Shown here: positions 3,219 to 40,103 of the stretch, piece by piece
Layout: each line of letters begins with the position of its first letter
How positions within the stretch are numbered: the stretch's first letter is position 1
Origin: an uncultured Clostridia bacterium
GTDB taxonomy: Bacteria; Bacillota; Clostridia; Christensenellales; UBA1242
Direction: 5' to 3'
Assembly (NCBI GenBank): GCA_934754475.1
Contig: CAKVHV010000004.1
Coordinates: 13,660-77,659, forward strand
DNA: 64,000 bases
The notes under the pieces: model-generated
The model's database searches: none
Told to the model about the DNA's origin: nothing
Seen by the model: the letters and a program-made list of their open reading frames with translations, nothing else
Position numbers and translations under genes: made by a program

Positions 3219-3321
3219 AAAAAAATATCCTTCAATAAAAAATTCAAGGATATTTTAGCATATTATTAATATAATTTCAAGCAATGTTAATTATTTAAAC
3301 AAAGTTAATTTGACAAAACTA

Positions 3322-23501: not shown

Positions 23502-23542
23502 TATTATGACCGCCTTAAATTAATTTTTGTGCATTTTTTAAA

Positions 23543-26500
23543 CTATTGCATATTTTCCAATTTTATTCTATTAAAGTATTGTTCAAAAGCCTTTTGACAA
23601 GACGAAACACCTTCACGATAGAATACGTCACGATTAAGAGCTTTTTGCATATCTGTTGGAGTCTTGAGTCTATTGACTGTTTCGACTACTGTTGAAATAT
23701 TGTCTCCAATTTTGAAGATATTTCCGTTGTTACTTAGGTTAATTGAAGAGAACTTGGCAATAAGGTTTATGCCCAATTCTTCGGAGTTAAGTATATTTGC
23801 TACTTCTTCCAAATTCTTAACAATTTCTGCAAATTCTTCGGTTGCTTCGAGTTCCTTGACAACATAAGCAAATGGACCTAGTTCGTGTTCTTTGTCTATA
23901 ATAAATCTAAACAAATATTGTTCGACAAAGCCCTTGATATTACATCTAATTGTTTGATTGTTAGGAAGTGCAATTTCCAAGTCTTTTTCTTCGCTATCTA
24001 TGCTTGGCAAAGTTCCACAAAGACCCAAAATTTGTCTTAGTTTGTCTACTGTGTCTTGCAAAGAAATATATTTATCGTCCTTGACTGCTTTTTCAAAGCC
24101 ATCATAAATACCCTTGAAAATTACGTCTATGTTTTTGATTTTGATACGTTCTTTTTGTTCTTCTTCTTGAGTTTCATCGTCTTGTTTTTGTTTTTCTTCC
24201 ATAGTTACGACTTTTTCGGTGTTGAGTTCAAAGTACTCAGCCATTTCAAGTTCGTAACCATTTATGTATTCTTTGTCTCTTATTTGAGCAAGCAAGGTTG
24301 TTCTTAATTCCTTTTTCTTGTCGGCAAAGAACTCTTCGAGTTCAGGGCAAACAATTCGTTTGTCTTCGCCATACTTTTCAAACAAGTCGTTTAGAGCAAA
24401 GTACATAAATAATCTTTCGTAGTGTTCGATTTCTTCGATTGAACTATAAATTTCTGGATGTGGATTAACCAAGTCTTCACTCATTGTATTAAAGCCACTT
24501 TCCAAAGTTTCAATAGTTTCCTTCTTTTCGTCAGTAGTTTTTCTATCAAAACTATTTGATTCCATAAGCATACGATTGATATAAAGCATTCGATTGAAAT
24601 ATAGCGATGCGTCGTCATTAATTGCATCAATAAAGTCGATATATCTTTCGCATCTTGACATCATAACATTACGAATAACCGAAGTGATTTCAAGTCTAAC
24701 GTCTTCGCTCAAATCACTAAAGTATGAATTAATCTTACTTAAACTCAAAATATCTTTTTCATAAAAATCTTCTTTGAGATGAGTTTTGTCTTTTTCAAGA
24801 GCATACTTTCTTCCAAAGGCAAGTAGTAATGCAAAATCAAGAAGTCTTGTTTTGTCTAGTACAAAGCCCGGACGAACGTACCATTTGTCGTCGTCGTAGT
24901 TGTAATTTGCTTCGTTTTCGTCACGTTTTTCTTTTTCCTTGCTAGCAAACTTAACCAAAGGAACTATTGGAGTTTTGGTTTCTTCGTACAAAACTGTTGC
25001 TTTGACGTCAATTTTTTCTCTTAATGCGTCAACCAAGTTTTCCATAAACTTGACACCCGAAGCCAAATAATATGGTTTGAGTTTTAGTAGCAACTTGTTG
25101 TAACCCCCATTGAATTTGTAGAGTACTCCAAATAGATTTGTTACATCACTCTTCAAATCCATATCTTCGTTTCGAGTTGTAACGATGTCGTTTTGCTCGT
25201 AAGATAGAACTTTGTTAAACTTGATATTTGTATCGGCATTTTCTTTTTGTTTAAAGTATATGCTACGTGGATAAGTACCAAGTCCACTATCCTTGTTATC
25301 TTCGTTTTGAATGATGACATTTTGACCTTTGATAGAAAAACTCAAATAGTCAAGTAGTCTGCTTTGGATTTGTTCTTTGTCAATCTTAACTGTTGGAATT
25401 TCGTTGTTTTCGATACGAGTAATAAGCGAACTTACATAAGTTTGTTTCATCTTGCTGGAATATTCTTCGTAAGTGCGTCTAACGTTTGCATCAGCCGAAA
25501 TTGTCTTGACAAGGGTTGCAATCAACTCACAACTCTTGATAACACCAGACTTAATTTTTTCTGGAACATATGATTCCAAATCGCCTTGGAATTTGTGTTC
25601 TATCAAATCTTTGAGTAAATCAAAATTAACCGAACTTATCAAATCGTTATAGTCACTAATTACAATATCAAGCATATTTTGTGGAACATACTTGGTCAAG
25701 AATTTTCTTAAATCAGATTTGTAATCAAACACAGCCAAATTGCTATCAAGAGTGCTAAGACCAGATTTTGCCATAGCATTTTTGACATAACGAATGTGCA
25801 TATCGGATATGATTTGTTCTGGGGTTTGGATTTGTGCTTTTTTGGTCTCCAAATATGAGTACAAGATATTGTTGTTTGTGAGCAACAAGAATTTGTATCT
25901 ATCATAAGTTGCATAGTCTTCCAAGTAATTTCCGTATGTGGTTACACCTTTGTTTTCAAATCCAACAACAAACGGAATAACACAAGGCTCAATTCCTTCG
26001 CTGAATGTATCAAAAGCCTGATAGTCTCTATTATACATTGGAACATTTGGAACTTGCATACTAGGCATCATGTAGCCCATTGGAGCAATTCCAACAACTC
26101 CGGTTGGAGCGCCCATGCCTACAACTCCCGGCATAGCACCAACTACACCACCAACTTGATTGCCACCAATAGGAGCAGTTTGATTAAATTGAGAGCCACC
26201 ATTTGAATTAGAACCGCTAGGTGCTGTAGCCCCTGCATTGCCATTAGCATTTGTATTTGAATTTGTTGGAGTAACACCGCCATTTGAAGCACCCGCACCA
26301 GAAATATTGTTTTGACCAAAATTGCTTGGGGCTTTTTTGGCATAAGTCTCTCTAGTTGGAAGTTCGTCGTTGTTTCCAAGAATAATAGGAGATGCACCAC
26401 CAACTGTTCCAATACTTCTAGCAAAAGTTGGTGATTTTGCAAACTCAGTGCTTTCGCCTAGGTTATTTAGTACTCCCACACCACCTGCATTGCCGACAAT

Positions 26501-28825
26501 ACTGCCATAAGCATTGATATAAGCATTTGCGGATTTGATTCTTTCTTCCTTTTGAGACTTTTTGAGTGCTTCACGGATTTTGTTTTCTTCCAAAATCTTT
26601 TGATGACTTTCGTCACTAATCCTTGCGGCCGTGGACTCAATTGTCTTGTCGACTTGCGAAAGTTTCTCTTCACGTCTAACAGGTTTCTCGTTTGGTTTTT
26701 GATAGTAATACATAACTTTGCCTTTGTCGAAAGCAAAATTAATGTCTGGAACTTCGGACAAAGTTTCTTTCAAAATACTAAGTTTTTCGTCAATAGAAAC
26801 TTTTGAATTTGACATACTTGCCTTATCATAAGCATCGTTAAGTTTGGATTTGACAAGTTCTTTTTGAGATTTTGCATATAGAAGCAAAATTCTAAAGTTA
26901 TTTTTTGATTTAATCAAGTCTTCTTTGGATTCACGATACTCGATATTTCCAATCTTTTGAGTAATGTCGTCAATCTGTGCTTGATAATAAGCGATTTGCT
27001 GATTGCTGTCTTTGGCTTTGTCATAAGACAACTTTTCTATCAAATCTTCGTATTGTTTCTTTTTTGTTATATATTCATTTTGGTCGTCTTGTTGAAGAAG
27101 GAATATTTTTTCCTTACGCAAATAATCAACAGTATAATTGTCGATTATGTCTTGAACAAACGCACGCATATCTTGAATCGAAGAATGTAATACATTTATA
27201 ATACGGAATGCGTTGTCTTCGATTCTCTCTACTCTAAGCCTGTTTACTTTGATTTCGTCCAAATCAATATCTAAGCCAAAATCTCTAGAAATATCCCCAA
27301 TTCTATAATCACTTATGTTTAGTTGGTCAGGAGACAAAATGTCGCCTTCATTTAAGAACTCTTCCATCATATCGCCAATAACAAGTCTCTTGGCTTGTTG
27401 TTTGATATGAACTCTATTTGAACCTTCGTCACGTTTGTCTTTGTTGGAGTAGTATTCGGCTTCAAAAATCTTTTGGAAGTTCTTCCACTCTTCGGCATTA
27501 CGACTATACTTTCTTATCGCATCCTTAAAGTATGCCTTGGCATTACGATTGTTGTTCATTGTTCCAAACAAATCGCTAAGTTCGGTTGCACTACGTGAGT
27601 TGATTCCCAAACTCTTTTCGGCTTCGTTGATGTAAGCAATAAACACTTGTCCCGGAGTTATGTACTTACGAGTTTCAATTGGCTGATTTAGGAAAGTATC
27701 AAGGAATTTGTTACAAGCCTTTTTGCTTAGAGCAAATGCTTTTTCTTGTTTGCCGATATAATACTTAATTCCGTTTCCGTTATTTGTGTTTTTGACAATA
27801 TAAATTCCAAGTTCGTCTTTGTCAACACTAACACCCACATAACTAAGTGCAGCAACTATATCAAAATCTTGTTGTTCTTTGTTTTTCTTAATCTCGCTTT
27901 CGATGTTTTTCTCAGTTGGGACATCTTCGTAGCCTTCGAGACAAACGTCATCAAAAATTGTTGTAGCGGTCTTAATATTGACGGTGTCGACTACTTTTTG
28001 TTTGTTCAAAATTGGCAAGTACTTTCCAAGAACGATATTATAAACAGCGACTTTTTCGATTTCGTCGTTGACCATTTCAACTGGCGCACGATTTTCCTTG
28101 AGTGCATCAATTTTTCTTAAAACTTTGTAACGATAGTTAAGAATACGCACTATATTTCCAAGCATCTTGGCCGAAATATCTTCAATGTCATTTATTTGGT
28201 CGGGAAGGTCGATGTATTCACTCTCGTCAACATAGTCCGGCATGTCTTCGTCCGATTCAAATTCGCTACCTGCCAAGTTTTCGTCTTCCTTAGCATCAGG
28301 TTCGTCGTTTGAATTTTTGTCAGTTACATCTGAACTTTCAGCATCGGCACTCTCCAAATCTTCCTTGGAAGTTTCGTCTGTGTCGGTGTCATTTTCGTCA
28401 GTATTTGGCTCGTCTGTGTTGGAGTCGTTTTCGTCTTTGTCAGCACTTGACTCTTGAGAATCGGCTTGTTTATCCTTATTAGAGTCCAAAGACTCTTCGT
28501 CAGACTTCTTGCCAGTCTTTTCGATGTCTTCCATAACTCCGTCAACCGCTTTTAGTAGGTTATCCAAAACATCGTAATCGGAATCCTGATTAAGACTATC
28601 TAATTTAATATTTGCTAGATATGTATTAATGATTTTGAGTAGAGTTAATTTGTCTTTTGGCCACGAAAACAAAGGGGTATCGAGTTTGAGACTGGCTATA
28701 ATTCCCCTTTTGTACTTGAGTGTGGCTTTGGTATCATTAAGATAATCAAAGTAATTCTTTAGTTTTTTGTTTCCATTTTTCTTCAATATTGTCACTTTGC
28801 ACCCCACAAAATTTGTAAGACTCAT
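23543..28825 (-). CDS. Giant T4SS-associated protein A (1760 aa), function unknown
   Basis: Uninterrupted ORF with its own promoter. Polyacidic tract at residues ~105-215, Gly/Asn/Ala/Pro-rich tract at ~770-900. No signal peptide or TM helix and no catalytic motif recognised. Confidence 0.8.
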   Translation of the reverse strand: MSLTNFVGCKVTILKKNGNKKLKNYFDYLNDTKATLKYKRGIIASLKLDTPLFSWPKDKLTLLKIINTYLANIKLDSLNQDSDYDVLDNLLKAVDGVMEDIEKTGKKSDEESLDSNKDKQADSQESSADKDENDSNTDEPNTDENDTDTDETSKEDLESADAESSDVTDKNSNDEPDAKEDENLAGSEFESDEDMPDYVDESEYIDLPDQINDIEDISAKMLGNIVRILNYRYKVLRKIDALKENRAPVEMVNDEIEKVAVYNIVLGKYLPILNKQKVVDTVNIKTATTIFDDVCLEGYEDVPTEKNIESEIKKNKEQQDFDIVAALSYVGVSVDKDELGIYIVKNTNNGNGIKYYIGKQEKAFALSKKACNKFLDTFLNQPIETRKYITPGQVFIAYINEAEKSLGINSRSATELSDLFGTMNNNRNAKAYFKDAIRKYSRNAEEWKNFQKIFEAEYYSNKDKRDEGSNRVHIKQQAKRLVIGDMMEEFLNEGDILSPDQLNISDYRIGDISRDFGLDIDLDEIKVNRLRVERIEDNAFRIINVLHSSIQDMRAFVQDIIDNYTVDYLRKEKIFLLQQDDQNEYITKKKQYEDLIEKLSYDKAKDSNQQIAYYQAQIDDITQKIGNIEYRESKEDLIKSKNNFRILLLYAKSQKELVKSKLNDAYDKASMSNSKVSIDEKLSILKETLSEVPDINFAFDKGKVMYYYQKPNEKPVRREEKLSQVDKTIESTAARISDESHQKILEENKIREALKKSQKEERIKSANAYINAYGSIVGNAGGVGVLNNLGESTEFAKSPTFARSIGTVGGASPIILGNNDELPTRETYAKKAPSNFGQNNISGAGASNGGVTPTNSNTNANGNAGATAPSGSNSNGGSQFNQTAPIGGNQVGGVVGAMPGVVGMGAPTGVVGIAPMGYMMPSMQVPNVPMYNRDYQAFDTFSEGIEPCVIPFVVGFENKGVTTYGNYLEDYATYDRYKFLLLTNNNILYSYLETKKAQIQTPEQIISDMHIRYVKNAMAKSGLSTLDSNLAVFDYKSDLRKFLTKYVPQNMLDIVISDYNDLISSVNFDLLKDLIEHKFQGDLESYVPEKIKSGVIKSCELIATLVKTISADANVRRTYEEYSSKMKQTYVSSLITRIENNEIPTVKIDKEQIQSRLLDYLSFSIKGQNVIIQNEDNKDSGLGTYPRSIYFKQKENADTNIKFNKVLSYEQNDIVTTRNEDMDLKSDVTNLFGVLYKFNGGYNKLLLKLKPYYLASGVKFMENLVDALREKIDVKATVLYEETKTPIVPLVKFASKEKEKRDENEANYNYDDDKWYVRPGFVLDKTRLLDFALLLAFGRKYALEKDKTHLKEDFYEKDILSLSKINSYFSDLSEDVRLEITSVIRNVMMSRCERYIDFIDAINDDASLYFNRMLYINRMLMESNSFDRKTTDEKKETIETLESGFNTMSEDLVNPHPEIYSSIEEIEHYERLFMYFALNDLFEKYGEDKRIVCPELEEFFADKKKELRTTLLAQIRDKEYINGYELEMAEYFELNTEKVVTMEEKQKQDDETQEEEQKERIKIKNIDVIFKGIYDGFEKAVKDDKYISLQDTVDKLRQILGLCGTLPSIDSEEKDLEIALPNNQTIRCNIKGFVEQYLFRFIIDKEHELGPFAYVVKELEATEEFAEIVKNLEEVANILNSEELGINLIAKFSSINLSNNGNIFKIGDNISTVVETVNRLKTPTDMQKALNRDVFYREGVSSCQKAFEQYFNRIKLENMQ

Positions 28826-28885
28826 GTGTGCGTTAGTCTTAAGAAATACTACTTTCCCAGCATACTAACATACTTATACATGTTT

Positions 28886-28914
28886 AGTTTACCACACTTG
28901 AGTTGTTTTTACAA
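28886..28914 (-). promoter_or_regulatory. Promoter for the giant-protein genes
   Basis: On the minus strand: TTGTAA (28909-28914), 17-nt spacer, TAAACT (28886-28891). Same -10 hexamer as the pilin-like gene promoters. Confidence 0.5.
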
Positions 28915-28948
28915 ATTTTTTAATATATAAATATATTAAAATACAAAA

Positions 28949-29012
28949 AAACCAACGATATTTTTAGGTCAAAACCCCCAAAGGAATTGGTTGTTTTTGA
29001 AATCGTTGGTTT
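28949..29012 (-). terminator. Terminator/attenuator after virB4
   Basis: 11-bp stem aaaccaacgat / atcgttggttt with a structured ~42-nt loop, followed on the minus strand by TTTTTTGTATTTT. Confidence 0.55.
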
Positions 29013-29018
29013 GATTAA

Positions 29019-31703
29019 TTAAATATTTGAGTTGAGTGCTGTCAGATAATTTGGATTATTAAACAAGTCTTTGGTTACATTCAACGCTTCGATTTGAACG
29101 GTTGTTCTGTTCATAGGTCCAGTAATTAAGAAACACTGACCACGACGAGCGGTAACTATGGAGTTCTGCTCTTCGGTGTTGATACCACCGGCATTACGAT
29201 AAAGTGTAATCAAGTCATTAATATCGGCTGGTGCCAAGGACATGATAATTGAGTACTGACAAGCATTAATAACTGCTGTACTTTGTTGGGCAATTTCTTC
29301 GGAGCCTACAAAGTCTTTGATATTCTGTGTAATGATAATTTGCATACCATTATATTTACGAATACGTTTAGCCATTTGCGCCATAAAGTCTAGCGCTATA
29401 GGGAATTTTTTGTTAATGAATACGTGTGCTTCATCAACCGCAACTATAATTCTTCGGTGGTCTTCTTCGAGTTCTTGGTCGGCAAAGTACTTCAAGTTAA
29501 AGTCACGGTTTTTGATAATTTCACTATCCAAATATTTAAATACCAAAAGCATCTGCGCATTGGCAATAATATCGTTACGGTTAGATATAAGTGAACGGAA
29601 CGAGAAACAACAGAAATTTTCGTTGGTCTTAATGGATGTATAACCATTCCATAGGTTGGAGTTACGTCCACCTGTTCCGAATTTCTCAATAAACATACGT
29701 ACTGTTTGTAGGTTTTTGAGATGGTATTCATTGGTTTCAGTTTCTAGTTTACTGTCAACAAGTGCTAACATATCGTCAAAAATTGGGAAGTCGGATGCTT
29801 GAAGGTCGGCGATATTAACACCAGAGTCAATACCCTTTGACCTATAAAGTTCGGCAGTAAGTGAGTTAAGCATTTCAAACGCATCGGTATTAATTCCCGG
29901 CAAAATCAGTCTATAAAATTGCTCCATAAACTGCAAGTGTTCAGCAAAGTCATCAGATGCTTGACCTTCTTCGGATTCAAGTGTTGCATAGATGTGGAAT
30001 GGATTGAATATACCATTTGTCGAGTTACCAACGTCTATTATCTTTCCACCTAGATTGTGACAAAGTATTTCGTACTCGTTTTCTGGGTCAAGAATAAATA
30101 TACGTGTATTATCCGCTGCAAAGTTTGTAAGCAAGGTCTTGGTACAATAAGATTTACCCGAACCAGACTTACCTATAATCATCATGTTTGAATTAACTCT
30201 TTCGTTGTTACGTGCAAAGAAGTTTGCAAATACTGGATATTGGTTGTAACCTATATAAATTCCCCTTTCGTCGTGCAATGTAGTTGAGATAAATGGGAAA
30301 CATGCAGCAAGCGAACTGGTTTGGATTCCACGTCCATATTGTTTGGAAAGTTTGTCCAAACGAGAAATATTACTAGATATAAATCCGTCGACTTGTCTTG
30401 CAAAGTTTTCGGCATACTTAAAGCCATTTTGTCTTAGTATCGCTCTAACTTCCTTTTTAACAGATTCTTTGGCTACAATGTGAACGGTCGTATTAAACAA
30501 TTGTTCATTTGCACCCTTGATACCTTTGAGCAATTCTTTGAGTGTATCTACGTGGTTTTGCACTTCGATTTTCATAGATGCTCTTAGGTCTTTTTGTAAT
30601 CTATTTTCCATTTCCATAAGAGACTTATCTAGGTCTTTTTCGGCTTTGTATCTATCAATTGGGCTAATATTAACCACAACTCTACTTTCATCCAAAGCAA
30701 ATATTGGATATGCCCAAGCATTAGGCACTTCAATAGGATAATCTGTTACACTAAATATTCTAAAAGTTTCACCGTCAATCTTGGTGGTTTTAAGACCAAA
30801 TTTAACTTCGTCTGGGTATACCCAGCTTGGTTTTTCCTTGATAGGTATAAGTTCAATTTCCCTTTCGTCAAAGTCTGTACAAAAGGTAGATTTCATAAAT
30901 ACATACAAGTCATCACCAGTAATAATGTTTGTATAAATTGGTGCAACCGAACTTTCCAAAGTTGCAACTATACCATTAATAGTATTATTAAGTGCATCTC
31001 TATCTGTATCATATACGACAATATAATAGTGGTCTTTGATAATCTTTTCGGTGTGGTTCATGTAGTTGATTGCCTGCAATCTCTCTTCGAATACCGGCGC
31101 ACGACTATCAAGCTCTTCCTTGGAATAAAGTCCCCTATCTGCCATGTCTTGCAAGGTATTATAACGATAGTCTTCGTAACTTGCCATGTTGTCAAGTAGC
31201 ATAGGTTTTTTGGTCTTGACAATTGACATTTGTTGGGTTAGATTTAGACGTTGTATTGCTTGCGAAAAGCAATTAATAACCATGTTTTGTCTATCTTCGG
31301 CGAGCAAGCCAAACGACATAGGAAATATCTCAACAACCATTCCATAATAATCACCAAATTTAAGAAATTTATCGGTGTTCAAATCGTCAAATGGCATGAT
31401 GTTTTTGATGTTTGTATTGCCTTTGTCTTTCTTGCTATACTTTTTGTGGTATGCCAAGTATCTAAAACTTAGAACCAAGGCAAAATACAACCTAATTCCG
31501 TCACCCATTTCAAAGAATAGCATTATCCACAATGCCAAAAAGAATACTGCCAAATATATATTGTATACAAGTTTGTCAAAAATGTTTGTGGTCACAAGTG
31601 CAACAGCAATTCCCGCACCCACAAGCATTAGCAGTACATCAAATATTGTAAAATTTCTAAAAACCGTAGTTTTTACTTTGGTTTTTCTTGGAATAAATCT
31701 CAT
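29019..31703 (-). CDS. virB4: VirB4/TraE-type T4SS ATPase with N-terminal membrane anchor
   Basis: 894 aa. Two N-terminal TM helices, Walker A IIGKSGSGKSY, Walker B IIVAVDEAHVF. GGAGAA RBS. Confidence 0.85.
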   Translation of the reverse strand: MRFIPRKTKVKTTVFRNFTIFDVLLMLVGAGIAVALVTTNIFDKLVYNIYLAVFFLALWIMLFFEMGDGIRLYFALVLSFRYLAYHKKYSKKDKGNTNIKNIMPFDDLNTDKFLKFGDYYGMVVEIFPMSFGLLAEDRQNMVINCFSQAIQRLNLTQQMSIVKTKKPMLLDNMASYEDYRYNTLQDMADRGLYSKEELDSRAPVFEERLQAINYMNHTEKIIKDHYYIVVYDTDRDALNNTINGIVATLESSVAPIYTNIITGDDLYVFMKSTFCTDFDEREIELIPIKEKPSWVYPDEVKFGLKTTKIDGETFRIFSVTDYPIEVPNAWAYPIFALDESRVVVNISPIDRYKAEKDLDKSLMEMENRLQKDLRASMKIEVQNHVDTLKELLKGIKGANEQLFNTTVHIVAKESVKKEVRAILRQNGFKYAENFARQVDGFISSNISRLDKLSKQYGRGIQTSSLAACFPFISTTLHDERGIYIGYNQYPVFANFFARNNERVNSNMMIIGKSGSGKSYCTKTLLTNFAADNTRIFILDPENEYEILCHNLGGKIIDVGNSTNGIFNPFHIYATLESEEGQASDDFAEHLQFMEQFYRLILPGINTDAFEMLNSLTAELYRSKGIDSGVNIADLQASDFPIFDDMLALVDSKLETETNEYHLKNLQTVRMFIEKFGTGGRNSNLWNGYTSIKTNENFCCFSFRSLISNRNDIIANAQMLLVFKYLDSEIIKNRDFNLKYFADQELEEDHRRIIVAVDEAHVFINKKFPIALDFMAQMAKRIRKYNGMQIIITQNIKDFVGSEEIAQQSTAVINACQYSIIMSLAPADINDLITLYRNAGGINTEEQNSIVTARRGQCFLITGPMNRTTVQIEALNVTKDLFNNPNYLTALNSNI

Positions 31704-31788
31704 TTTTTATTCTCCATTTTTCATATGTGCATATGCACATAAATTTTTATGAATAGTTGGGAAAATCCCAACTATTCATTAATTTAAA

Positions 31789-34434
31789 TTATTTGCCAAG
31801 TGTATTTTTAAGTTCTTCCAAAGCTTTGTGAAGTTCAGATAACAACTTAGCATTACCTTCTTGACCCCACTTCTTGAGTTGGTCTTGAAGCATAGATTCA
31901 AGTTCACTTGCCTTAGCATTTTTCTTAATAGCGTCTGCCAAACTCTTTTTGAAGTCTTCCAATCCATCAAAATGCACTTGATATTCGGATTTGTTCTCTA
32001 CATCAAATTTTCCACCAGTTGGAGCAACGATATTCGAATTCAAAGCACGCATTTGATTAATATAGTATTTTGCACCATCTTCATCACCATGTTCTTTTGC
32101 CTTATTAAATGCTACAGCTAATTTATCTAATTGTTTATTCAAATCTTGATTTGCAATTTCAACTTTTTGAACCAATGCAGTTTGAATCATTTGAGCTTGT
32201 TGTGTTCTTTTTTCTCCTATCCAACCTGCATTACGTTTGTTGTAAGCTGCTTCCGCCTTGTCTGCTTTAGCTTTGGCAGCATTATCTAACATCTGTTTGC
32301 CTTCAGGACTAACACTATTGGCATCAGTATAAGCCTTTTGATATTGTTCAGGTATTTTTTGCATCGAACTAGGTGCTAACGCTTTCCATGCTGCACCAAA
32401 ACCAAATGTATTGTTAATAGTATCTCCTGCCATTTTTCTTAATGCTTCGCCAGCCATATGTCGTTTTGCAGCTCTATTGACAGATTTTTCTTTAGATTTT
32501 TTATCTTCTTCTTGATAATAATCGTCTGTTAGTAAAGCTCTCTTTGCCTTTTTGTTTCCACTTTCTTCTATCTCTTTTCTCGCTGAATTTTTAGCATCGG
32601 ATTTATTCTTTAATTCTCTTCGAGAACCTATAACATCATTACGTGCGTTTTCAACCGCGGCGACTTGGTCTTTATACTCTTGACTATCCTTAGTATATAC
32701 GTTGTCAGCTTCCATCTGTTTTAATTTATCACTTTCTTCCCTAAATTTACTTTCATTTGCTGTCACATTCTTCTTGGCAACTGATTCTTCGTCAGCAGCT
32801 GTTTGATATTTTTGATACTCTTCGGAATTCCTACCACCTTTGTTGATTTTTTTACCTACCCATCGTGCACCCTTATCAATAGCATCAATTCCTTTACCAG
32901 GCAATCCTACAACTGCATCAACTCCTTTTCTAATACCGCCACCAACTTTGTCTGCAAGTCTTCCAGCTGCACCGCCTGTAAGTTTATTAGCAAGACCACC
33001 TGCTCCTTTGGCTGCACCAAGTGCAAGTTTTCCGGCACCCATGGCAACACTACCGCCTACTGCAACTGCTTTTTGTAGGCCTGCTGTGGCTTCTTTGGCT
33101 AGACCTGCACCATCGGCTGCAGCATTGCCACCACCAAAGTAACTACCCATATCGCCTGCGAGTTTTTCAATCATTAAACATCCTACAATTACCATAAGAG
33201 ATTTAACAAGTCCAACCATAAATGAATTTGGGAATGGGAGTGCTGTAAAGTCTCCAGTGAATGTAATATCAATTTCGAGCATTACTCGAACAATTGTAAA
33301 GAATATATTCATGGATATGACTATTCCATAGGCAGATAATGCCTTAGACATAAAGCTACTTCGCCATGAGCCAAGGTTATCTTTGACTGGCGCCATACCG
33401 ACCGCCAGTGGCATGACAATAAATAATGCTGTACACCTATACAATCTATCAATCATTCCAAAACAGCAGTTAAATAAACATTTTAGAATCAAACACCCTG
33501 CAAAGATTAAAACAAGATAATTTACTTCAAATGGATTGTAAAATTTGACAACCGCATTAAGGTCGGAATATTTTAATGTCACCCCCGCCATAAAGTTTTC
33601 TTCAATAAAGACTCTATTTGAAGGGTCTCCTAGTTTCACACTTTCCATTAAGGATTTCTCATCGCTATCAAATAGTTCTCTCAACCCCATCGTAAATCCT
33701 TCGGTAATCGCCAACGACACTCCCGCTCCGATTAATTCGCCAGCATTAGCACCATCACCAAAATCAACTCCGATTTCTTCGAGTGCTTTTGCAAGTGTCC
33801 CTGGTTCTTTAAGCATTGCAGTACTAGCGGATGTTACCCAAAGGCAACCACTAATTCTAGCATTTTCACCACCACCAGTGGCTGTGTCAATTAACTCCAA
33901 AACTTGGTTTCCAATAAATACACCAAGCACAACCATAATAGGTATCATTAGCATGTTTACAAGAGCCTTGAAAGATTTGTTGAGAATAGTAGTTTTTGAA
34001 TTGTTTGCACCTTCAGTCGTATACTCGACTTTTACGATTTGGAATACCGTTGTAATCATAAGTAGGAATATTCCGACAATTGCACAAGCAAAGAATACAT
34101 CAAGAACATCTTTGTGCGTAATAAATTGCAATAGCAAGTCGCCACTTTTTCCATTGAGTGAAAATTCGGCTCCCATAGTTCCATTATTACTACTAAGTCC
34201 CGCCAATGCTCTAAACAGCACTTCTACAAAGTCAATAAGTTTGAGAATAAAAACAGACAATTCGTAAAATAATGCAGCGCCAAAATACTGAATAACAGTT
34301 ATTACAACTTGCAAAAGAACCTTAATAACTGGCACAAGTATATTTTGAATAAGCGTACTAAAAACAAAATTAAGAACCTTGTTAAGCAATTCGCCAAGTC
34401 CCGAAAGGAGTCCTAACATTCTAGATATTCCCAT
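31789..34434 (-). CDS. VirB6/TrbL-like polytopic membrane protein with Gly/Ala linker and long coiled-coil tail
   Basis: 881 aa. About 450 aa of multiple TM helices, a GGGNAAADGAG...GGAAG linker, then ~350 aa rich in Lys/Glu/Ala/Asn. AGGAGA RBS. Confidence 0.65.
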   Translation of the reverse strand: MGISRMLGLLSGLGELLNKVLNFVFSTLIQNILVPVIKVLLQVVITVIQYFGAALFYELSVFILKLIDFVEVLFRALAGLSSNNGTMGAEFSLNGKSGDLLLQFITHKDVLDVFFACAIVGIFLLMITTVFQIVKVEYTTEGANNSKTTILNKSFKALVNMLMIPIMVVLGVFIGNQVLELIDTATGGGENARISGCLWVTSASTAMLKEPGTLAKALEEIGVDFGDGANAGELIGAGVSLAITEGFTMGLRELFDSDEKSLMESVKLGDPSNRVFIEENFMAGVTLKYSDLNAVVKFYNPFEVNYLVLIFAGCLILKCLFNCCFGMIDRLYRCTALFIVMPLAVGMAPVKDNLGSWRSSFMSKALSAYGIVISMNIFFTIVRVMLEIDITFTGDFTALPFPNSFMVGLVKSLMVIVGCLMIEKLAGDMGSYFGGGNAAADGAGLAKEATAGLQKAVAVGGSVAMGAGKLALGAAKGAGGLANKLTGGAAGRLADKVGGGIRKGVDAVVGLPGKGIDAIDKGARWVGKKINKGGRNSEEYQKYQTAADEESVAKKNVTANESKFREESDKLKQMEADNVYTKDSQEYKDQVAAVENARNDVIGSRRELKNKSDAKNSARKEIEESGNKKAKRALLTDDYYQEEDKKSKEKSVNRAAKRHMAGEALRKMAGDTINNTFGFGAAWKALAPSSMQKIPEQYQKAYTDANSVSPEGKQMLDNAAKAKADKAEAAYNKRNAGWIGEKRTQQAQMIQTALVQKVEIANQDLNKQLDKLAVAFNKAKEHGDEDGAKYYINQMRALNSNIVAPTGGKFDVENKSEYQVHFDGLEDFKKSLADAIKKNAKASELESMLQDQLKKWGQEGNAKLLSELHKALEELKNTLGK

Positions 34435-34685
34435 TTTCCATTTCTCCTAAAAAATATTCCAAAAGTAATGCACTCAAATATACTTAAAAACAAACCAAAT
34501 CTTAAGATAGTCTGAAAGATTATTTAGGCACACTTACTTAGATTACATAATATATATATTTATCTTATCCTATTTCGACAAAAAAAACAAATTATTTTAA
34601 TATTATTTTTAATAATATTTTATTAATGTCATCAAATCTCGTAAAATCTAAAGTGCACTTTAATTTTAACGGAACACAAGTTCAC

Positions 34686-34722
34686 AAAAAAAGACAAGAA
34701 TTAAATTTCTTGTCAGTTTTTT
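34686..34722. terminator. Terminator after pilin-like gene 1
   Basis: gacaagaa / ttcttgtc stem flanked by an A7 run and a T6 run. Confidence 0.7.
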
Positions 34723-34820
34723 GTTTTATTGAAAATCTAAGATGCAAAATTCTAATGTTAAATCAAATTATTAATACAAAATCAAATAGTCTAATAAAAA
34801 TTCAAAACATTAATTTTTGC

Positions 34821-35150
34821 TTAGGCATCAGCACCTTTCATATATCCAAACATTTGTGGAATAAGCGAATCCCACTGGATAGCATAGCATAGCGTTATCA
34901 AAAGTATCAAAACTATTGCACCAATGAGAGTATTAATCATTCTTTTTTTGTTTTCGGCACGTTTTTCGTCACTCTCAGACTTTGCATACTGAACACCAAG
35001 AAAGATTACATAAATGATTGCAAACAAGCCAAGCACACTAAGACATGGACCTACAATGTTTTCCAAAACTTGATTAACTTTAGCCGCAGTTTGACCAAGC
35101 CTATCGTAGCTTGCCAAAAGTCTTGACATATTAAGCAACAAATTCTTCAT
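34821..35150 (-). CDS. VirB2/TrbC-topology pilin-like protein, paralog 1
   Basis: 109 aa from ATG 35150 (GGAGAG RBS). N-terminal leader-like segment, two hydrophobic helices split by the charged loop YAKSESDEKRAENKKR. Clear paralog of 35434-35793. Confidence 0.7.
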   Translation of the reverse strand: MKNLLLNMSRLLASYDRLGQTAAKVNQVLENIVGPCLSVLGLFAIIYVIFLGVQYAKSESDEKRAENKKRMINTLIGAIVLILLITLCYAIQWDSLIPQMFGYMKGADA

Positions 35151-35181
35151 ATTACTCTCCAAAATATTTTTACTTACACAA

Positions 35182-35210
35182 AGTTTATTAAAAAAATTGG
35201 TTTTAGTCAA
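35182..35210 (-). promoter_or_regulatory. Promoter of pilin-like gene 1
   Basis: On the minus strand: TTGACT (35205-35210), 17-nt spacer, TAAACT (35182-35187). Near-identical to the promoter of paralog 2. Confidence 0.6.
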
Positions 35211-35250
35211 CTAATTTTATATGGGTACAAACGATTTTGTAGCATTAAAC

Positions 35251-35288
35251 ACAAAAAAATCCTGCTTGGCTTAGAAAAAAGCAGGATT
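35251..35288 (-). terminator. Terminator after pilin-like gene 2
   Basis: aatcctgctt / aagcaggatt stem followed on the minus strand by a T-run. Confidence 0.7.
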
Positions 35289-35433
35289 TAAAACCACATA
35301 GAATTGGGGTATGTAACAAGCATAAACCAGCTGCGAACATATAAAAAGCTAATCTATGCCTAACTGCTACACGTTTTATCTATGAAGTTTCCAAAAAAGT
35401 ATAATATCCGAGTTTACGGGATTTTTTAATTTA

Positions 35434-35793
35434 TTATGCAGTCCATTTGTTGAAGCCACTAACAATTGAACCCCAGTCAAGAGCATAACATAGAGCAGCA
35501 CCAGCAACGATAATTACGCCACCAATAACTGCACCAATTAGTCTTCCTTGAACTTCTTTACGTTTAGAAGCGTCTTCTGCTCTAGCATATTGAACACCAA
35601 GATAAATTGCATAACCAATTGCAGCAATACCTAGTACTGTGAATATTGGACCCATTACCCAGTTAAATATTTTGTTTACACCTTCAACAACATCTGTTAT
35701 ATCTGTTATTGTACCTTTGTCCCTAACAGGGTCTTCTCTCAAAACATTATTACCAGTAACAGCCATTGCTAATTTAAATAAAAAGTTTTTCAT
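35434..35793 (-). CDS. VirB2/TrbC-topology pilin-like protein, paralog 2
   Basis: 119 aa, GGAGAA RBS. MKNFLFKLAMAVTG leader-like N-terminus, two hydrophobic helices split by YARAEDASKRKEVQGR. Shares GP..VLG..AI.Y.I.LGVQYA...LIGA...LCYA..W.S with paralog 1. Confidence 0.7.
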   Translation of the reverse strand: MKNFLFKLAMAVTGNNVLREDPVRDKGTITDITDVVEGVNKIFNWVMGPIFTVLGIAAIGYAIYLGVQYARAEDASKRKEVQGRLIGAVIGGVIIVAGAALCYALDWGSIVSGFNKWTA

Positions 35794-35833
35794 TTTTTCT
35801 GTTCTCCGTATTTTTTTATTTTAACTTACCCAA

Positions 35834-35862
35834 AGTTTATTAAAAAATTCGTGTCAAGTCAA
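35834..35862 (-). promoter_or_regulatory. Promoter of pilin-like gene 2
   Basis: On the minus strand: TTGACT (35857-35862), 17-nt spacer, TAAACT (35834-35839). Confidence 0.6.
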
Positions 35863-35978
35863 CTAAAATTATGTAGTTTTTGCAAAAATATGTAAAATTT
35901 TTTGATTTTGTGTACATTGATTGCCAAAAATAGATTATTTTGAATATAAAAATTTTTGTGGTAATCTTGTGCTAGTGT

Positions 35979-36007
35979 TTGACACAACTAGCAAAAATAT
36001 ATATACT
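35979..36007 (+). promoter_or_regulatory. Promoter of the coupling-protein gene
   Basis: TTGACA (35979-35984), 17-nt spacer, TATACT (36002-36007). The -35 box sits inside the palindrome GCTAGT-N10-ACTAGC (35971-35992). Confidence 0.55.
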
Positions 36008-36102
36008 ACTAATGAAATTTGTATATATTTAATACAAAAATATCTTGTATATTTAAGTAAAAATTATTTTTGTGTATGGCACAAAAAGATAAGGATGGAA
36101 AA

Positions 36103-38157
36103 ATGGCAGACAAGAAAAAAGATGAAGCGAGTTTTGGAACTAAATTCAAAAAAATATTTGGTGCATTTATATTTTGCCTAATTGGTGTAGTAATAGGTTC
36201 GTATATAATTTCTAGTTTTTTTGCATTTGGAACACTCAAGATTGGAAATTTTGGTGAAATATTTGCTAATCAGCAATTTAAGTCAATATTTATGATAATA
36301 TCTCTAATTGCACTTGTTGTAATGTTAATTATGTTTAGCAATCACGCATTCAAGTTTAACGAAAAGCCAAAAGCCAAGGTTGAGACCAAGGGTGGAATAT
36401 CCAAGTATTATGATACACACTGGATAACCAACGAAGAACTCAAGACCAACCCAGACTTTAAATTCCACTACTACGAAGACTTGCATAGGTCGGACAACAT
36501 TGGTATTCCAATTAGAGCGGAACTAATTAACGGGCGACTTAATGTCAACATGTACAAGCCAATTCACACACTTGTAATTGGTACAACTGGTGCTGGTAAA
36601 ACTACACAGTTTATTGACCCAACCGTTCAAATACTTAGTGAATCTCATGCTAAGCCTTGTATAGTTGTAACCGACCCTAAGGGTGAAATTTATGACAACC
36701 ACAGCGAGAAACTCAGAAAGAATGGATACCGAGTACTTACATTTGACTTGAAAGAGCCATTTAAGAGTGCATGCTGGAATCCGATGACGAGAGCATATGA
36801 ACTCAATGAGCGAGCAATGAATCTTAATCGTGAAGTTGTTGTTCACCACAATGATGACCCAAGAGACTTTAGCCTAAAGTGTGTAAGTCAAGTATACTAT
36901 GGCGAATGGTACGAATTTGACGGATTTGCATTTTCGGATATACAAACACTTAATTCACACCAAGCATCACTTAAGCAAATTCTCAAGACCGAAGCATTTG
37001 AAGAACTCAAAGATATAGCATCGGTTTTGTGTCCAATTGAAAGTAGCCAAGACCCTATTTGGGACAGGGGCGCTAGAGACTTGGTTTTGGGAACAATGCT
37101 TGCGATGCTTGAAGACAGCGAAAATCCTGAACTTGGGATGACCAAGGACAAATTTAATTTTTATAACTTAGCACAGATTTTGGCACTCAAAGACAATGAT
37201 GCCTACAACCCATTCAAGACTTTGACCGAATATTTCCAAGGCAGAGACGAACACAGCAAAGCCACACAACTAGCCAATCAAGTACTCACCAATGCCGACA
37301 AGACCAAGATGTCTTATATGGGTATTGTTGCAAATCGTATGGGTTTGTTTAGTGATATGGGTGTATGTTATGCCACATCAGTAAACGAAATGGACCTTAA
37401 GACATTCACCGACCAGCCTACTGCTATATTTATCAAAATCCCTGATGAAAAGACTACCCGTCACCCAATTGCTACAATGTTTGTATCGCAATTATACAAA
37501 ATACTAGTTGATGTAGCCAACAAACGTGGCGGTGAACTACCAAAAACCGTATACTTCCTACTAGATGAATTTGGTAACATGCCTAAGATTGAAAACTTTG
37601 AAACAATTATTACTGTTGCTAGATCTCGTAAGATATTCTTTACATTAATCTTGCAATCATATGCACAGCTTACCATTAAGTATGGTCAAGACGTAAGTGC
37701 GACTGTCAAAGACAACTGTAACATTCATATATTTATCGCATCCAACGATGACGGAACTAAGGAAGAATTTAGTAAACGTTGCGGTAACATTTCTGTTGAG
37801 ACCGAAACCACATCTGTTAGCAAGGGTGGCGAAGAAGGTGCGAAAGAAAGCAAGTCTGTCAACGTTCAACTTGACACTCGTCCACTTATTTATCCAGCCG
37901 AACTTGGAGCGCTCAAACCTAACTCTGGTGAATGTATAGTTTCAATTCTTCAACGTAACCCAATTAGAGCGGTATTCACTCCTAGTTACAAGTGTTCGGT
38001 TTATGATATGTCCAAAGCCCCTGCCGACAACAGTCTACCTAATCAGCTTGACGAAAGCAAGGCTTACTACGACATTCGTATCCGTAATCAAAAGGTTCTC
38101 AGAAAAGCTCCCGCTAATCCAAATGGTGGTAGCAATAACAACCCATTTGATTTCTAA
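36103..38157 (+). CDS. virD4: VirD4/TraG-type T4SS coupling protein
   Basis: N-terminal TM helices, Walker A IGTTGAGKTT, Walker B VYFLLDEFGNMP. The tracked ORF starts at TTG 36070; ATG 36103 has the best RBS (AAGGA plus 7 nt); ATG 36076 is also possible. Confidence 0.85.
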   Translation: MADKKKDEASFGTKFKKIFGAFIFCLIGVVIGSYIISSFFAFGTLKIGNFGEIFANQQFKSIFMIISLIALVVMLIMFSNHAFKFNEKPKAKVETKGGISKYYDTHWITNEELKTNPDFKFHYYEDLHRSDNIGIPIRAELINGRLNVNMYKPIHTLVIGTTGAGKTTQFIDPTVQILSESHAKPCIVVTDPKGEIYDNHSEKLRKNGYRVLTFDLKEPFKSACWNPMTRAYELNERAMNLNREVVVHHNDDPRDFSLKCVSQVYYGEWYEFDGFAFSDIQTLNSHQASLKQILKTEAFEELKDIASVLCPIESSQDPIWDRGARDLVLGTMLAMLEDSENPELGMTKDKFNFYNLAQILALKDNDAYNPFKTLTEYFQGRDEHSKATQLANQVLTNADKTKMSYMGIVANRMGLFSDMGVCYATSVNEMDLKTFTDQPTAIFIKIPDEKTTRHPIATMFVSQLYKILVDVANKRGGELPKTVYFLLDEFGNMPKIENFETIITVARSRKIFFTLILQSYAQLTIKYGQDVSATVKDNCNIHIFIASNDDGTKEEFSKRCGNISVETETTSVSKGGEEGAKESKSVNVQLDTRPLIYPAELGALKPNSGECIVSILQRNPIRAVFTPSYKCSVYDMSKAPADNSLPNQLDESKAYYDIRIRNQKVLRKAPANPNGGSNNNPFDF

Positions 38158-38212
38158 AAATTTGACACAAAGTAATTTTATAAATTCTATTTTAATATTG
38201 TTTAGGAAACAC

Positions 38213-38247
38213 AAAAAAACTTTACCAAGCTTGGTAAAGTTTTTTTA
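38213..38247. terminator. Terminator after the coupling-protein gene
   Basis: Perfect palindrome ctttaccaagcttggtaaag flanked by an A7 run and a T7 run. Confidence 0.8.
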
Positions 38248-38318
38248 ACGCCAATGTTTTATTAATATAACATACTAAAGTATCGAGTGAGTGTTTATTT
38301 GTAACATTACTAACTAAA

Positions 38319-38408
38319 GTATCGGTTGAGTACTCGAAAAAATTTTTGCTAAGGCTTCGGCTTCGCCTGCAGAAATCGCAAAAATCTTTTTCTGTGTCTT
38401 CCCGATAC
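38319..38408 (+). repeat. Structured repeat element, copy 1
   Basis: Outer stem gtatcgg / ccgatac. Conserved internal blocks GAGTACTCG and CTGTGTCTTCCC. A 14-bp A/U-rich inner stem (38336-38349 / 38378-38392, one bulged C). UUCG-capped tip. Confidence 0.55.
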
Positions 38409-38792
38409 GGATATTATTGGGAGTTGTTGGTAAGCAGTCCAAAGAAATATTTGCCAGCAACTAATGAAGATTTTGTATCACATATATAATATTATCGGAA
38501 GTTGAGAGTAGCACAAATGTTTACATTTGTATTACCGAAACGACGACGAATTCAATCTATGTAACCACGATATAATCGTGGGCTTTGCGATAGCAAATTG
38601 TTTTGTGAATACAATGAACAAAGCAACATTACATAGATTATATTAGTTTTATTAGTAAAATAAGAAAATTCAAATAATAGCACTTTGTCTAACAAATTAG
38701 CAAGTCAAAAACTTGTAATTATGTAATCGTATCATTATCATAACTTTTAAATAAAAAATTTCAAAAACAAACTCAAAGTCTATTTGGTGGTT

Positions 38793-38875
38793 TGCGGGGA
38801 AGACGCAGGGGAAAATTTGAGAACTCTGCGTCAGCACAGTGGGGCAAATTTTTCACGAGTACTCCACCCGCATAC
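38793..38875 (-). repeat. Structured repeat element, copy 2 (inverted relative to copy 1)
   Basis: The reverse complement aligns with copy 1: gcggg / cccgc outer stem (compensatory relative to atcgg / ccgat), and GGAGTACTCG, GAAAAATTTG / CAAATTTTC and CTGCGTCTTCCCC blocks. Enclosed by the 13-bp stem 38759-38771 / 38885-38897, with a T-run after it on the minus strand. Confidence 0.55.
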
Positions 38876-38939
38876 ATAAGCCAATTTGTTTTTGAAATAA
38901 AATTCTTACAATATAACTTGTAACTTGCAAATCTAATTT

Positions 38940-40103
38940 TTAAATCACGCGGGTTTCGTTAACACCTACTGCGAAACCGCATGGACTAGCACATTTGTAG
39001 CCCGGGAACGTACACCTACTGCCTTTGAGATAATTCCTTAGTTCTTCGGCACGTGGATGAACTTTGACACGCAAAGCATTCTCGTATTTTTTGAGCGTCT
39101 CACTTGTAATTTGATTAATCTCTAGTTGTGCAAAAGTACATTTTCTCTCATACATTTTAAGTACGAAATTATCTAGTGTACCCATTTCGGTTACGTCTAG
39201 TAATGTCGCTTGTGGATAGATATTTCCCAAAGATTTGATGTCGTCTATCCAAAGTCTAGTCAAATCTTCGTTGTCTCTAATGATTGGCGGAACGTAGTAT
39301 TCGTCGGTTAGGTTCATTGTGTAGTTTAGAGTACGATGTCTTTGTGCTTGGGCTAGTTCGGCAAAACTCGCTTTGTAAGTCGTACAATACACATCGCCAA
39401 AGTATTCTTCATAAGCCTTGTCGTCAGCAAAAAGACTCAAGTGCCTATTTTTGTCGTTTACACAAAGCATAGTATCGTAATATCTTGTCTCTTTGAATTT
39501 GGTTATAAGTTCGCTCAGTGCGGATGCTACTTTGGTTTCAAAGTCGGACTTGTTTTCTTTGTCAACAAAGTTTTGCATAAAGGCTATTAGGTAGTTAAAT
39601 TGTCTATAAGTGGTTGAATACACCATTGAAGTCGGAGTGAATACCGACAATACGTATCTAGCATTTTCTTGAGCTAATTTTTCTATTCGGCTTGGGGTCA
39701 AAAATTGTGGATAGTCGTTGTTATATTTCTTTTGGATACGGGTTTTGAAAATATCTATCCATTTTTGATAAATCGCCTTTTCTTTTTCTGACATAACCAT
39801 TTTTGTATATCTTGCGGACTTTTCGCTAGTTGTATACTGGTGTTCGTTGTTTAGAATCATGGCGACTATTTTTGGAACATCGCTTAGATACATCGAAATC
39901 ATTTCGTGGTCATAGACACTATGGTGACCATTTGATTTGGTCATCATTACACGTTTGGCAGTTTTTGATTTGTCTTCGCTTACCAAATCGTCAAAGGTAG
40001 ATGCCATGTAGCACACCCCTGCCGACTTCCCGCTAAAGTCGTCAAATTCTGATTTGTCAGCATTATATCCAACACAAGTTGTTGCAATAACTTTTAAATC
40101 CAT
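38940..40103 (-). CDS. thyX: FAD-dependent thymidylate synthase, atypical internally duplicated form
   Basis: 387 aa. Two ThyX-like halves. Half 1 has GHHSVYDH and NEH-QY-T-TSEK-S-A-RY (ThyX motif spacing, but RHR replaced). Half 2 has QRHR and TFAQLEIN. Sits 11 nt downstream of tmk. Confidence 0.7.
   Translation of the reverse strand: MDLKVIATTCVGYNADKSEFDDFSGKSAGVCYMASTFDDLVSEDKSKTAKRVMMTKSNGHHSVYDHEMISMYLSDVPKIVAMILNNEHQYTTSEKSARYTKMVMSEKEKAIYQKWIDIFKTRIQKKYNNDYPQFLTPSRIEKLAQENARYVLSVFTPTSMVYSTTYRQFNYLIAFMQNFVDKENKSDFETKVASALSELITKFKETRYYDTMLCVNDKNRHLSLFADDKAYEEYFGDVYCTTYKASFAELAQAQRHRTLNYTMNLTDEYYVPPIIRDNEDLTRLWIDDIKSLGNIYPQATLLDVTEMGTLDNFVLKMYERKCTFAQLEINQITSETLKKYENALRVKVHPRAEELRNYLKGSRCTFPGYKCASPCGFAVGVNETRVI

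Follow-up and report, generated by a model that had tools for sequence, protein, structure and literature searches.

Repetitive extragenic palindromic (REP) sequences with their RAYT enzymes, insertion sequences (ISs) of the IS200/IS605 type, and integron attC sites are recognized as folded single-stranded DNA (ssDNA). Other palindromic repeats, i.e., BOX, RUP, Correia, and ERIC, are miniature inverted-repeat transposable elements (MITEs) or modular palindromes. Here, we analyze a spacer in a 64,000-nt stretch of contig CAKVHV010000004.1 from an uncultured Clostridia bacterium (the whole stretch is called the window), where the genes virD4 (stop at 38157) and thyX (stop at 38940) converge on a gap of 782 nt, as anticipated by a reading of the sequence alone that had put it at ~780 nt (the original prediction). 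About 640 nt of this spacer (38275–38917) is a composite of lineage-specific palindromic repeat modules, in which two modules, A and B, face each other across 334 nt of non-coding filler. The block is probably a mosaic of non-autonomous palindromic repeats of MITE- or REP/BIME-like character, moved or rearranged at the DNA level. We read it as mobile or recombinogenic because DNA has been gained, lost, flipped, and eroded here on the time scale of strain divergence, and the evidence fits a block that is not a gene, a conserved RNA gene, or a component of the adjacent type IV secretion system (T4SS).

Each module contains a hairpin, and the hairpins A and B share GGTTGAGTACTCG...CTGYGTCTTCCC. 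The pattern GAGTACTC-N45-75-GTCTTCCC matches twice in the 64 kb, at 38328–38403 (plus strand) and 38797–38864 (minus strand), and 0/100 shuffles reproduced it; the two inverted copies that the original prediction described at this place are therefore real. Under a covariance model, the scores of A and B are 97 and 84 bits, with E about 1e-26 and 1e-22, and no third hit appears in the window; BLAST of the region interior against the window likewise returned no further copy. The A and B ends lie in inverted orientation; their arms measure 23 nt (83% match) and 22 nt (77% match). Both fold as hairpins on either strand (z of −3.0 to −3.6 as RNA and −2.5 to −3.5 as DNA), with no strand preference by folding energy, as RNA or DNA. 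In an alignment of 14 distinct hairpins with a consensus fold of 22 pairs, 95.8% of cells are paired, against 40–56% when the 3′ partners are slid by 1–3 columns; half of the pairs (11/22) show double-sided changes, and the observed covariation score was reached by 0/500 shuffles. The helix formed by the two conserved motifs is invariant and contains two G-U (G-T) pairs. The covariation supports the hairpin fold, with few independent events in only three or four hairpin types, and the compensatory outer-stem changes already noticed between A and B extend beyond these two copies.

The hairpins belong to a family, 85–100 nt in size, with types A, B, and C in the sister species of the window and a variant, A′, in a metagenome-assembled genome (MAG) of a Hadza-gut Clostridia bacterium. 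All types carry GGTTGAGTACTCG at the 5′ base and CTGYGTCTTCCCG at the 3′ base, an invariant, asymmetric base whose pairing is imperfect, with two conserved G-T/G-U pairs plus bulges. Each type has its own outer stem, inner stem, and loop, with the pairing kept by compensatory changes. Every type B hairpin sits inside a TTTCAAAAACAAA...TTTGTTTTTGAAA stem. Most A/A′ copies are preceded by a conserved leader and one or two stubs (a leader, a 5′ arm, and a GAGTA-like motif, then other DNA), and a type C copy, at locus L010, has two stubs. Usually, the hairpins form convergent pairs, with the GAGTACTCG motifs outward, around 0–1.2 kb of unrelated DNA, in the arrangements A(+)...B(−), A(+)...B(−)...C(−), C(+)...A′(−), and A′(+)...C(−); solo hairpins occur in L015 and L018. 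The interior of a pair is 393 nt long in the window, 312 nt in L008, and 194 nt in L005; it is 0 nt in L011 (1854–2040), where a GGGA microhomology marks the fusion of A with B. A second pair in L011 (2805–4200) brackets a 1.2-kb gene-bearing segment. This cargo (2957–4027) consists of a 104-aa open reading frame (ORF) with a weak HTH_3 (XRE-like) match and a gene of the YpsA/SLOG family that an in-frame stop interrupts.

The family is narrowly distributed. Scanning one genome per species from 185,579 species with GAGTACTCG-N40-70-CTGYGTCTTCCC gave 12 loci. Six of these match by chance, in unrelated DNA that is mostly GC-rich; the six true loci lie in two MAGs, three in each, namely ‘Clostridiales bacterium UBA11490’ (L005, L008, L011) and the Hadza-gut MAG (L006, L010, L015). 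In the JGI metagenomes, the same scan found true copies in one assembly only, ULTU01 (L018, L019, L024). Two motif scans of IMG/VR gave zero matches, BLASTN in distant mode matched the 681-nt region to none of the PLSDB plasmids or INPHARED phages, and about 84 kb of the source contig hold one hairpin locus only. Literature searches on the motif, and on REPIN/RAYT in Firmicutes, returned nothing relevant. The family was thus found only in a narrow clade of uncultured gut Clostridia, at few unrelated intergenic loci that include the recF/dnaN-side spacer (L011, L006) and a spacer upstream of a peptidase gene (L005/L018). The dozens of scattered copies that were to mark a generic repeat in the original prediction were not seen, and the family is low-copy. 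Its proposal of a REP-like family, or of the ends of a non-autonomous mobile element, has gained from the several unrelated loci, the convergent pairs, and the strain polymorphism. In UBA11490, the two sets of hairpin modules of L011 are separated by an AT-rich 700-nt spacer (2050–2760), running from recF to the gene before dnaN, with a DnaA-box-like TGTGGATAA; it may be origin-proximal.

Comparison of the virD4/thyX spacer across relatives and strains shows how it differs among them. The gene order nrdD...ATPase-tmk-thyX facing virD4-pilins-virB4 is kept in six relatives (L002, L003, L004, L029, L030, and L031), with ThyX identities of 96, 82, 72, 72, 72, and 69% and gaps of 235, 258, 226, 253, 253, and 118 nt, respectively. 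The covariance model found no hairpin in these six syntenic spacers, including the thyX loci at 72% and 69% ThyX identity; conservation of the region next to homologous clusters, which the original prediction had proposed to look for, was not found. Between the window and L002, the flanks are collinear, and a block of about 600 nt is present in the window only. L002, L008, and L019/L024 are conspecific (thyX 98.9–99.4% and virD4 3′ ends 99.4% identical), and the window represents a sister lineage, at about 92% (thyX) and 97% (virD4 3′ end). Three assemblies of this one sister species show three states at one spacer. (i) In L002, the 235-nt gap holds the stub only, with the junction ctaaagtatcggttGAGTACT/aagacgtccactttag. 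(ii) In L008, the order is stub-leader-A(+)-inner-B(−)-C(−), ending in the junction GAGTACT/aagacatccactttag. (iii) In ULTU01, an A 5′-arm stub is followed by B(+), the reverse complement of the inner segment, A(−), and then C(−), an order deduced from two contigs, L024 and L019, both of which break within the inner segment.

Similar differences are found at the other loci. At the peptidase spacer, L018 has a solo B(−), and L005 has 311 nt extra, made up of a B stub, A, and filler, with an 8-nt GTTTGCGG repeat at its borders. The recF/dnaN-side spacer is filled in both MAG species, by different module types (L011 vs. L006). The 122-nt A module of the window (38302–38423) is 93–97% identical to the sister-species copies, and hairpin A itself differs by 0–4 nt; the B module is 91–97% identical to L008 and L005 and 83% identical to the reversed L024 segment, and the filler shared with the sister species falls below the modules, at 85%. 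Junctions recur right after GAGTACT, i.e., in L002 vs. L008, at the right end of L011, and at the stubs, and are also found at GGGA (the A/B fusion of L011) and at GTTTGCGG (L005 vs. L018). Relative to L002, GAGTACT stands at both junctions of L008 and L011; it is also an internal motif of the family, and microhomology deletion explains its presence at both junctions equally well. No target-site duplication is evident in the window. TTGTAAC was considered as a 7-bp target duplication there and rejected, being part of the conserved A leader in other copies. In the same spacer of the 82% relative, L003 (7344–7413), three tandem 23-nt units, TCAACTAAAAGATAGTTGnTTTT, are each a small palindrome; this is a different repeat in the same spacer.

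The features of the window spacer and its two flanking genes are as follows.

36070–38157, plus strand: virD4, gene for a VirD4-type coupling protein.
38213–38246: flanking terminator, a perfect 17-bp palindrome with A7/T7 flanks, outside the element.
38275–38293, plus strand: stub, a degenerate partial 5′ arm of hairpin A, ctaaagtatcgagtGAGTG, orthologous to the sole piece in the short-gap L002.
38294–38318, plus strand: module A leader, tttatttgtaacattactaactaaa; the same leader lies 5′ of hairpin A in L005, L008, and L011.
38319–38408, plus strand: hairpin A (copy 1), 90 nt, with the outer stem 38319–38325 / 38402–38408, gtatcgg/ccgatac.
38409–38423, plus strand: module A 3′ tail, ggatattattgggag, identical after every type A hairpin.
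38424–38549: variable filler, 126 nt, non-coding and window-specific; L008 has an unrelated ~47 nt instead.
38550–38757: inner segment, non-coding, common to L008 and, reversed, to L024 (ULTU01).
38758–38898, minus strand: module B, i.e., hairpin B inside a perfect 14-bp stem, ATTTCAAAAACAAA / TTTGTTTTTGAAAT.
38790–38875, minus strand: hairpin B (copy 2), 86 nt, with the outer stem 38790–38798 / 38867–38875, gtttgcggg/cccgcatac, one mismatch.
38899–38917: right tail, aaaattcttacaatataac, resembling the tail after module B in L011, aaaatacttactataac; the boundary is approximate.
38940–40103, minus strand: thyX, long form, converging with virD4.

In short, the window reads stub-leader-A(+), then the 126-nt filler specific to it, then the inner segment in common with L008 and L024, and finally B(−); hairpin C and the right-hand piece present in L002 are missing, and the native thyX-proximal flank restarts at about 38918. 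Upstream of hairpin A, the partial repeat reported earlier is present with 80% identity (38263–38292 vs. 38302–38331). Hairpin A carries its 5′ motif GAGTACTCG at 38328–38336 and its 3′ motif CTGTGTCTTCCC at 38392–38403, an A/T inner stem with a bulged C, and a 28-nt loop. The C(UUCG)G motif said to cap this hairpin is indeed present in the loop (38354–38359), but it is not the tip in minimum-energy folds. Also present is the predicted 10-bp helix with two G-U pairs (38423–38432 / 38452–38461), which falls in a stretch missing from the orthologous UBA11490 element, L008. The inner segment is 85% identical to L008 and unrelated to the interiors of L005 and L011; a promoter-like TTGAAA-16-TATGAT lies on the minus strand at 38764–38737. 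In hairpin B, on the minus strand, GAGTACTC is at 38857–38864 and CTGCGTCTTCCC at 38797–38808. The enclosing stem (38758–38771 / 38885–38898) has 14 bp rather than the 13 bp first counted and is followed on the minus strand by UUUUUUAUUU, a U-run; the same stem surrounds every B hairpin (L005, L008, L011, L018, L024). That the gap has no ORF above 25 codons is correct if TTG and GTG starts are ignored; once they are counted, there are about ten ORFs of 25–48 codons. The single ATG-start ORF (38773–38877, minus strand, 34 aa) falls within hairpin B, and no ORF of the gap is conserved, the relatives being without the whole segment.

In the reading we favor, the modules would be non-autonomous DNA elements, moved or recombined in trans by an enzyme encoded elsewhere. 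Such an enzyme would recognize the folded hairpin base in ssDNA, and microhomology deletions between repeated motifs would then erode the arrays. The hairpins resemble known ssDNA sites in the invariant, imperfect, and asymmetric stem base, the variation elsewhere, and the bulged bases. Either cleavage or strand exchange after GAGTACT, or slippage between copies of the invariant 7–8-mer, would explain the recurrent junctions; this 7–8-mer is the only invariant one of the family and, being palindromic, acts as a direct repeat whichever way it is oriented. As a secondary effect, module B with its U-run probably terminates thyX transcripts on the minus strand.

Several observations weigh against this reading. 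Pfam searches that covered the window, a further 20 kb of the source contig, and 8-kb contexts around the other copies turned up no transposase, integrase, or HUH enzyme, and neither clean target-site duplications nor exact element ends could be defined; the mechanism is therefore one we infer. Copies look very few, at about three loci per genome under the strict pattern, which is atypical for MITEs and REPs. Recombination and deletion among repeats already resident could account for the strain differences, with no true transposition involved. The sequences compared all come from metagenome assemblies, which are error-prone at repeats, and the ULTU01 arrangement was pieced together from two contigs of one metagenome; against the worry of assembly error stands the occurrence of the same modules in four independent assemblies. 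Lastly, the conserved G-U-type pairs and conserved loops would also fit a role at the RNA level.

Such a role, in which the hairpins act mainly in RNA as REP-like elements of the 3′ untranslated regions or terminators of converging genes, with their spread secondary, is the alternative that survives best, and we regard it as rather unlikely. The hairpins would stop read-through or protect mRNA 3′ ends. Consistent with this, the GAGTACTCG strand is the sense strand of the incoming gene for every hairpin at this spacer (window, L008, ULTU01), a U-run follows module B on the thyX strand, the two conserved G-U pairs form on the GAGTACTCG strand only, and C(UUCG)G in loop A is conserved between species. 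However, both strands fold equally well, hairpin A is without a U-run, and the L005/L018 copy lies between divergent genes, upstream of a start codon. In addition, the 17-bp palindrome at 38213–38246, which we read as a bidirectional intrinsic terminator of virD4, is kept in all close relatives (L002, L008, L024), probably serves thyX too in the short-gap relatives, where it is the only virD4/thyX terminator, and suffices there. An RNA-level role and mobility could also coexist, the former perhaps as a side effect of the latter and not a rival to it.

Less probable is that the hairpins are sites of a site-specific recombinase, acting either in attC-like cassette exchange or as inverted repeats of an invertible segment. 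The conserved, imperfect, asymmetric stem base with a variable center is attC-like, convergent pairs bracket variable cargo, including the 1.2-kb gene-bearing segment, the A-inner-B block is opposite in two conspecific strains, and junctions recur at the palindromic GAGTACTC. Yet no recombinase gene lies near any copy, and every hairpin has a matched outer stem, with none of the A/B hybrids expected from a crossover at GAGTACTC. The inverted block of ULTU01 includes leaders and tails and has different flanks, which points to reinsertion or a complex rearrangement, not a flip, and the flanking genes converge, so an inversion would switch no promoter onto them. Two explicit routes were tried and rejected: simple inversion by a crossover at GAGTACTC, where outer stems are all matched and A/B hybrids are absent, and inversion in ULTU01 through A stub × A(−), which predicts a stub(−) to the right of B that is absent in L008 and in the window. 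We give little credence to the notion that the hairpins, folded in single strands, serve as recombination sites for a system new to Clostridia that exchanges cassettes or makes self-targeting insertions. An enzyme of that kind would cut beside the palindromic GAGTACTC at the hairpin base, and small segments, including the HTH/SLOG cargo, would be shuffled, inverted, and loaded at a few chromosomal hot spots.

Two further proposals of the original prediction are not supported. Origins of transfer (oriT) contain hairpins beside the nick site, and the block adjoins the coupling-protein gene virD4, yet an oriT-like site for the adjacent T4SS, which should be conserved with it and occur once per element, is highly improbable: the T4SS locus is kept without hairpins in all six syntenic relatives, hairpins of this family also sit at places with no relation to a T4SS (recF/dnaN, the peptidase gene), and no relaxase domain was found among the ORFs scanned with Pfam. 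Equally poor is the case for one large structured non-coding RNA (ncRNA) of 560 nt closed by pairing of the inverted copies. The region does lack a convincing ORF, and a 591-nt fold does pair A with B, as was predicted (z −7.6), but any inverted repeat gives such pairing and such a z-score, the interior is unconserved between copies and sometimes absent, the block is missing from the six syntenic relatives, and the Rfam check called for at the outset produced no match. At the gathering threshold, no Rfam family (ROOL, GOLLD, OLE, raiA, and HEARO included) matched anywhere in the window, and on 38100–39000 with E up to 10, there was sub-threshold noise only, at ≤23 bits vs. cut-offs of 35–440 bits.

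The genes around the spacer deserve a brief description. The window belongs to a metagenome contig of 124.8 kb (ENA ERZ27286994). The host GC content is low, about 34%, and a Clostridia/Christensenellales-like placement is based on the composition profile and on how ThyX homologs are named. ThyX is a 387-aa protein in which the Pfam Thy1 domain spans residues 26–170 only and the C-terminal half is uncharacterized; this long form has thousands of homologs, which, where named, come from Clostridia or Christensenellales. The T4SS-like cluster of the window (19710–38157) includes a VirB4-like ATPase, VirD4, two T4SS_pilin ORFs, an 881-aa ORF, and giant ORFs of 1263 and 1760 aa without a Pfam match. 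Its synteny with thyX-tmk-ATPase-nrdD persists in relatives whose ThyX identity is as low as 69%, so the cluster appears to be stably chromosomal and not part of an integrated conjugative element. On the source contig, about 4–5 kb left of the window start (L026, 16643–17192), a 71-aa ORF followed by a PemK-family toxin ORF is likely a toxin–antitoxin pair; a GGGtGRT-domain protein lies nearby.

This analysis explains an oversized, seemingly ‘empty’ spacer and drops a candidate large ncRNA and a candidate oriT. What takes their place is an apparently undescribed palindromic repeat family in a clade of uncultured gut Clostridia, low in copy number, sometimes associated with cargo, and structurally unusual, with long hairpins, stems that covary, and a stem base that is asymmetric and invariant. 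As markers of hot spots where strains have rearranged, the repeats are useful for strain typing and as flags of likely assembly breaks. If it is true that an enzyme recognizes the hairpin base, the family would offer a compact model of hairpin-directed DNA recombination in Firmicutes; absent such an enzyme, it would be ordinary selfish or repetitive DNA.

How the family relates to described systems can be considered class by class. As in a MITE, a small non-coding block (about 640 nt) has terminal inverted repeats. The strict pattern finds three loci in each of two MAGs; a parent autonomous IS with the same ends was not found, no transposase was found in any locus context, and the sole copy with genes carries the HTH ORF and the broken YpsA/SLOG gene. 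BOX, RUP, Correia, and ERIC are likewise small, non-coding, and hairpin-forming, and share with the family presence/absence polymorphism among strains and inverted ends around a variable core; BOX also has a modular A/B/C build, as here. Unlike in these elements, conservation here is subterminal, located at the stem base, and each type has its own termini (outer stems); no target-site duplication could be defined, no parent IS with matching ends was found, and the copy number looks very low.

REP/BIME/REPIN elements, like the family, are imperfect palindromes of intergenic DNA whose stem base bears a conserved head motif, and they too show alternating orientation, variable spacers, and mosaics of subtypes. 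They often lie between convergent genes, can terminate or stabilize mRNA, and are non-autonomous, as here. However, these elements belong to Proteobacteria with RAYT/TnpA-REP, have hairpins of 20–40 nt rather than 85–100 nt, and reach hundreds of copies, whereas the present family occupies few loci per genome in a Clostridia host, its pairs bracket up to 1.2 kb of cargo, and no RAYT (Y1 HUH) gene is found in the 8–20-kb contexts read. The IS200/IS605-derived PATEs are similar in having subterminal hairpins instead of simple terminal repeats, breakpoints beside a fixed short motif, and a non-autonomous nature without a transposase. Their end hairpins, however, lie on the same strand, in contrast to the inverted orientation of every pair here; the hairpins here are three to four times longer, and no TnpA or TnpB gene was found. 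For invertons, in which inverted repeats flank a promoter facing a regulated gene and a population contains both orientations, the comparison rests on the opposite orientations in two conspecific assemblies, in which the flanking genes show their 3′ ends and the flanks differ between states.

Integron attC sites are imperfect hairpins of 57–141 nt that have, at the base of the stem, conserved boxes whose pairing is imperfect, along with bulged bases, a center variable in sequence and length, and variable cargo, all of which the family shares. In contrast to attC, the RYYYAAC/GTTRRRY boxes are absent, the boxes here being GGTTGAGTACTCG and CTGYGTCTTCCCG; the sites are convergent instead of forming direct arrays, and most cargo is non-coding. 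Same-strand neighbors are few, i.e., B(−)-C(−) in L008 and A(−)-C(−) in L019, with no adjoining integrase gene, and no intI/attI was found, nor an integrase in the window or the extended contig. Because it departs from defining features of REP, MITE, attC, and IS200/IS605 alike, we assign it to no named family. By analogy, it would work most like REP/BIME mosaics or modular MITEs such as BOX, with a hairpin architecture that recalls attC.

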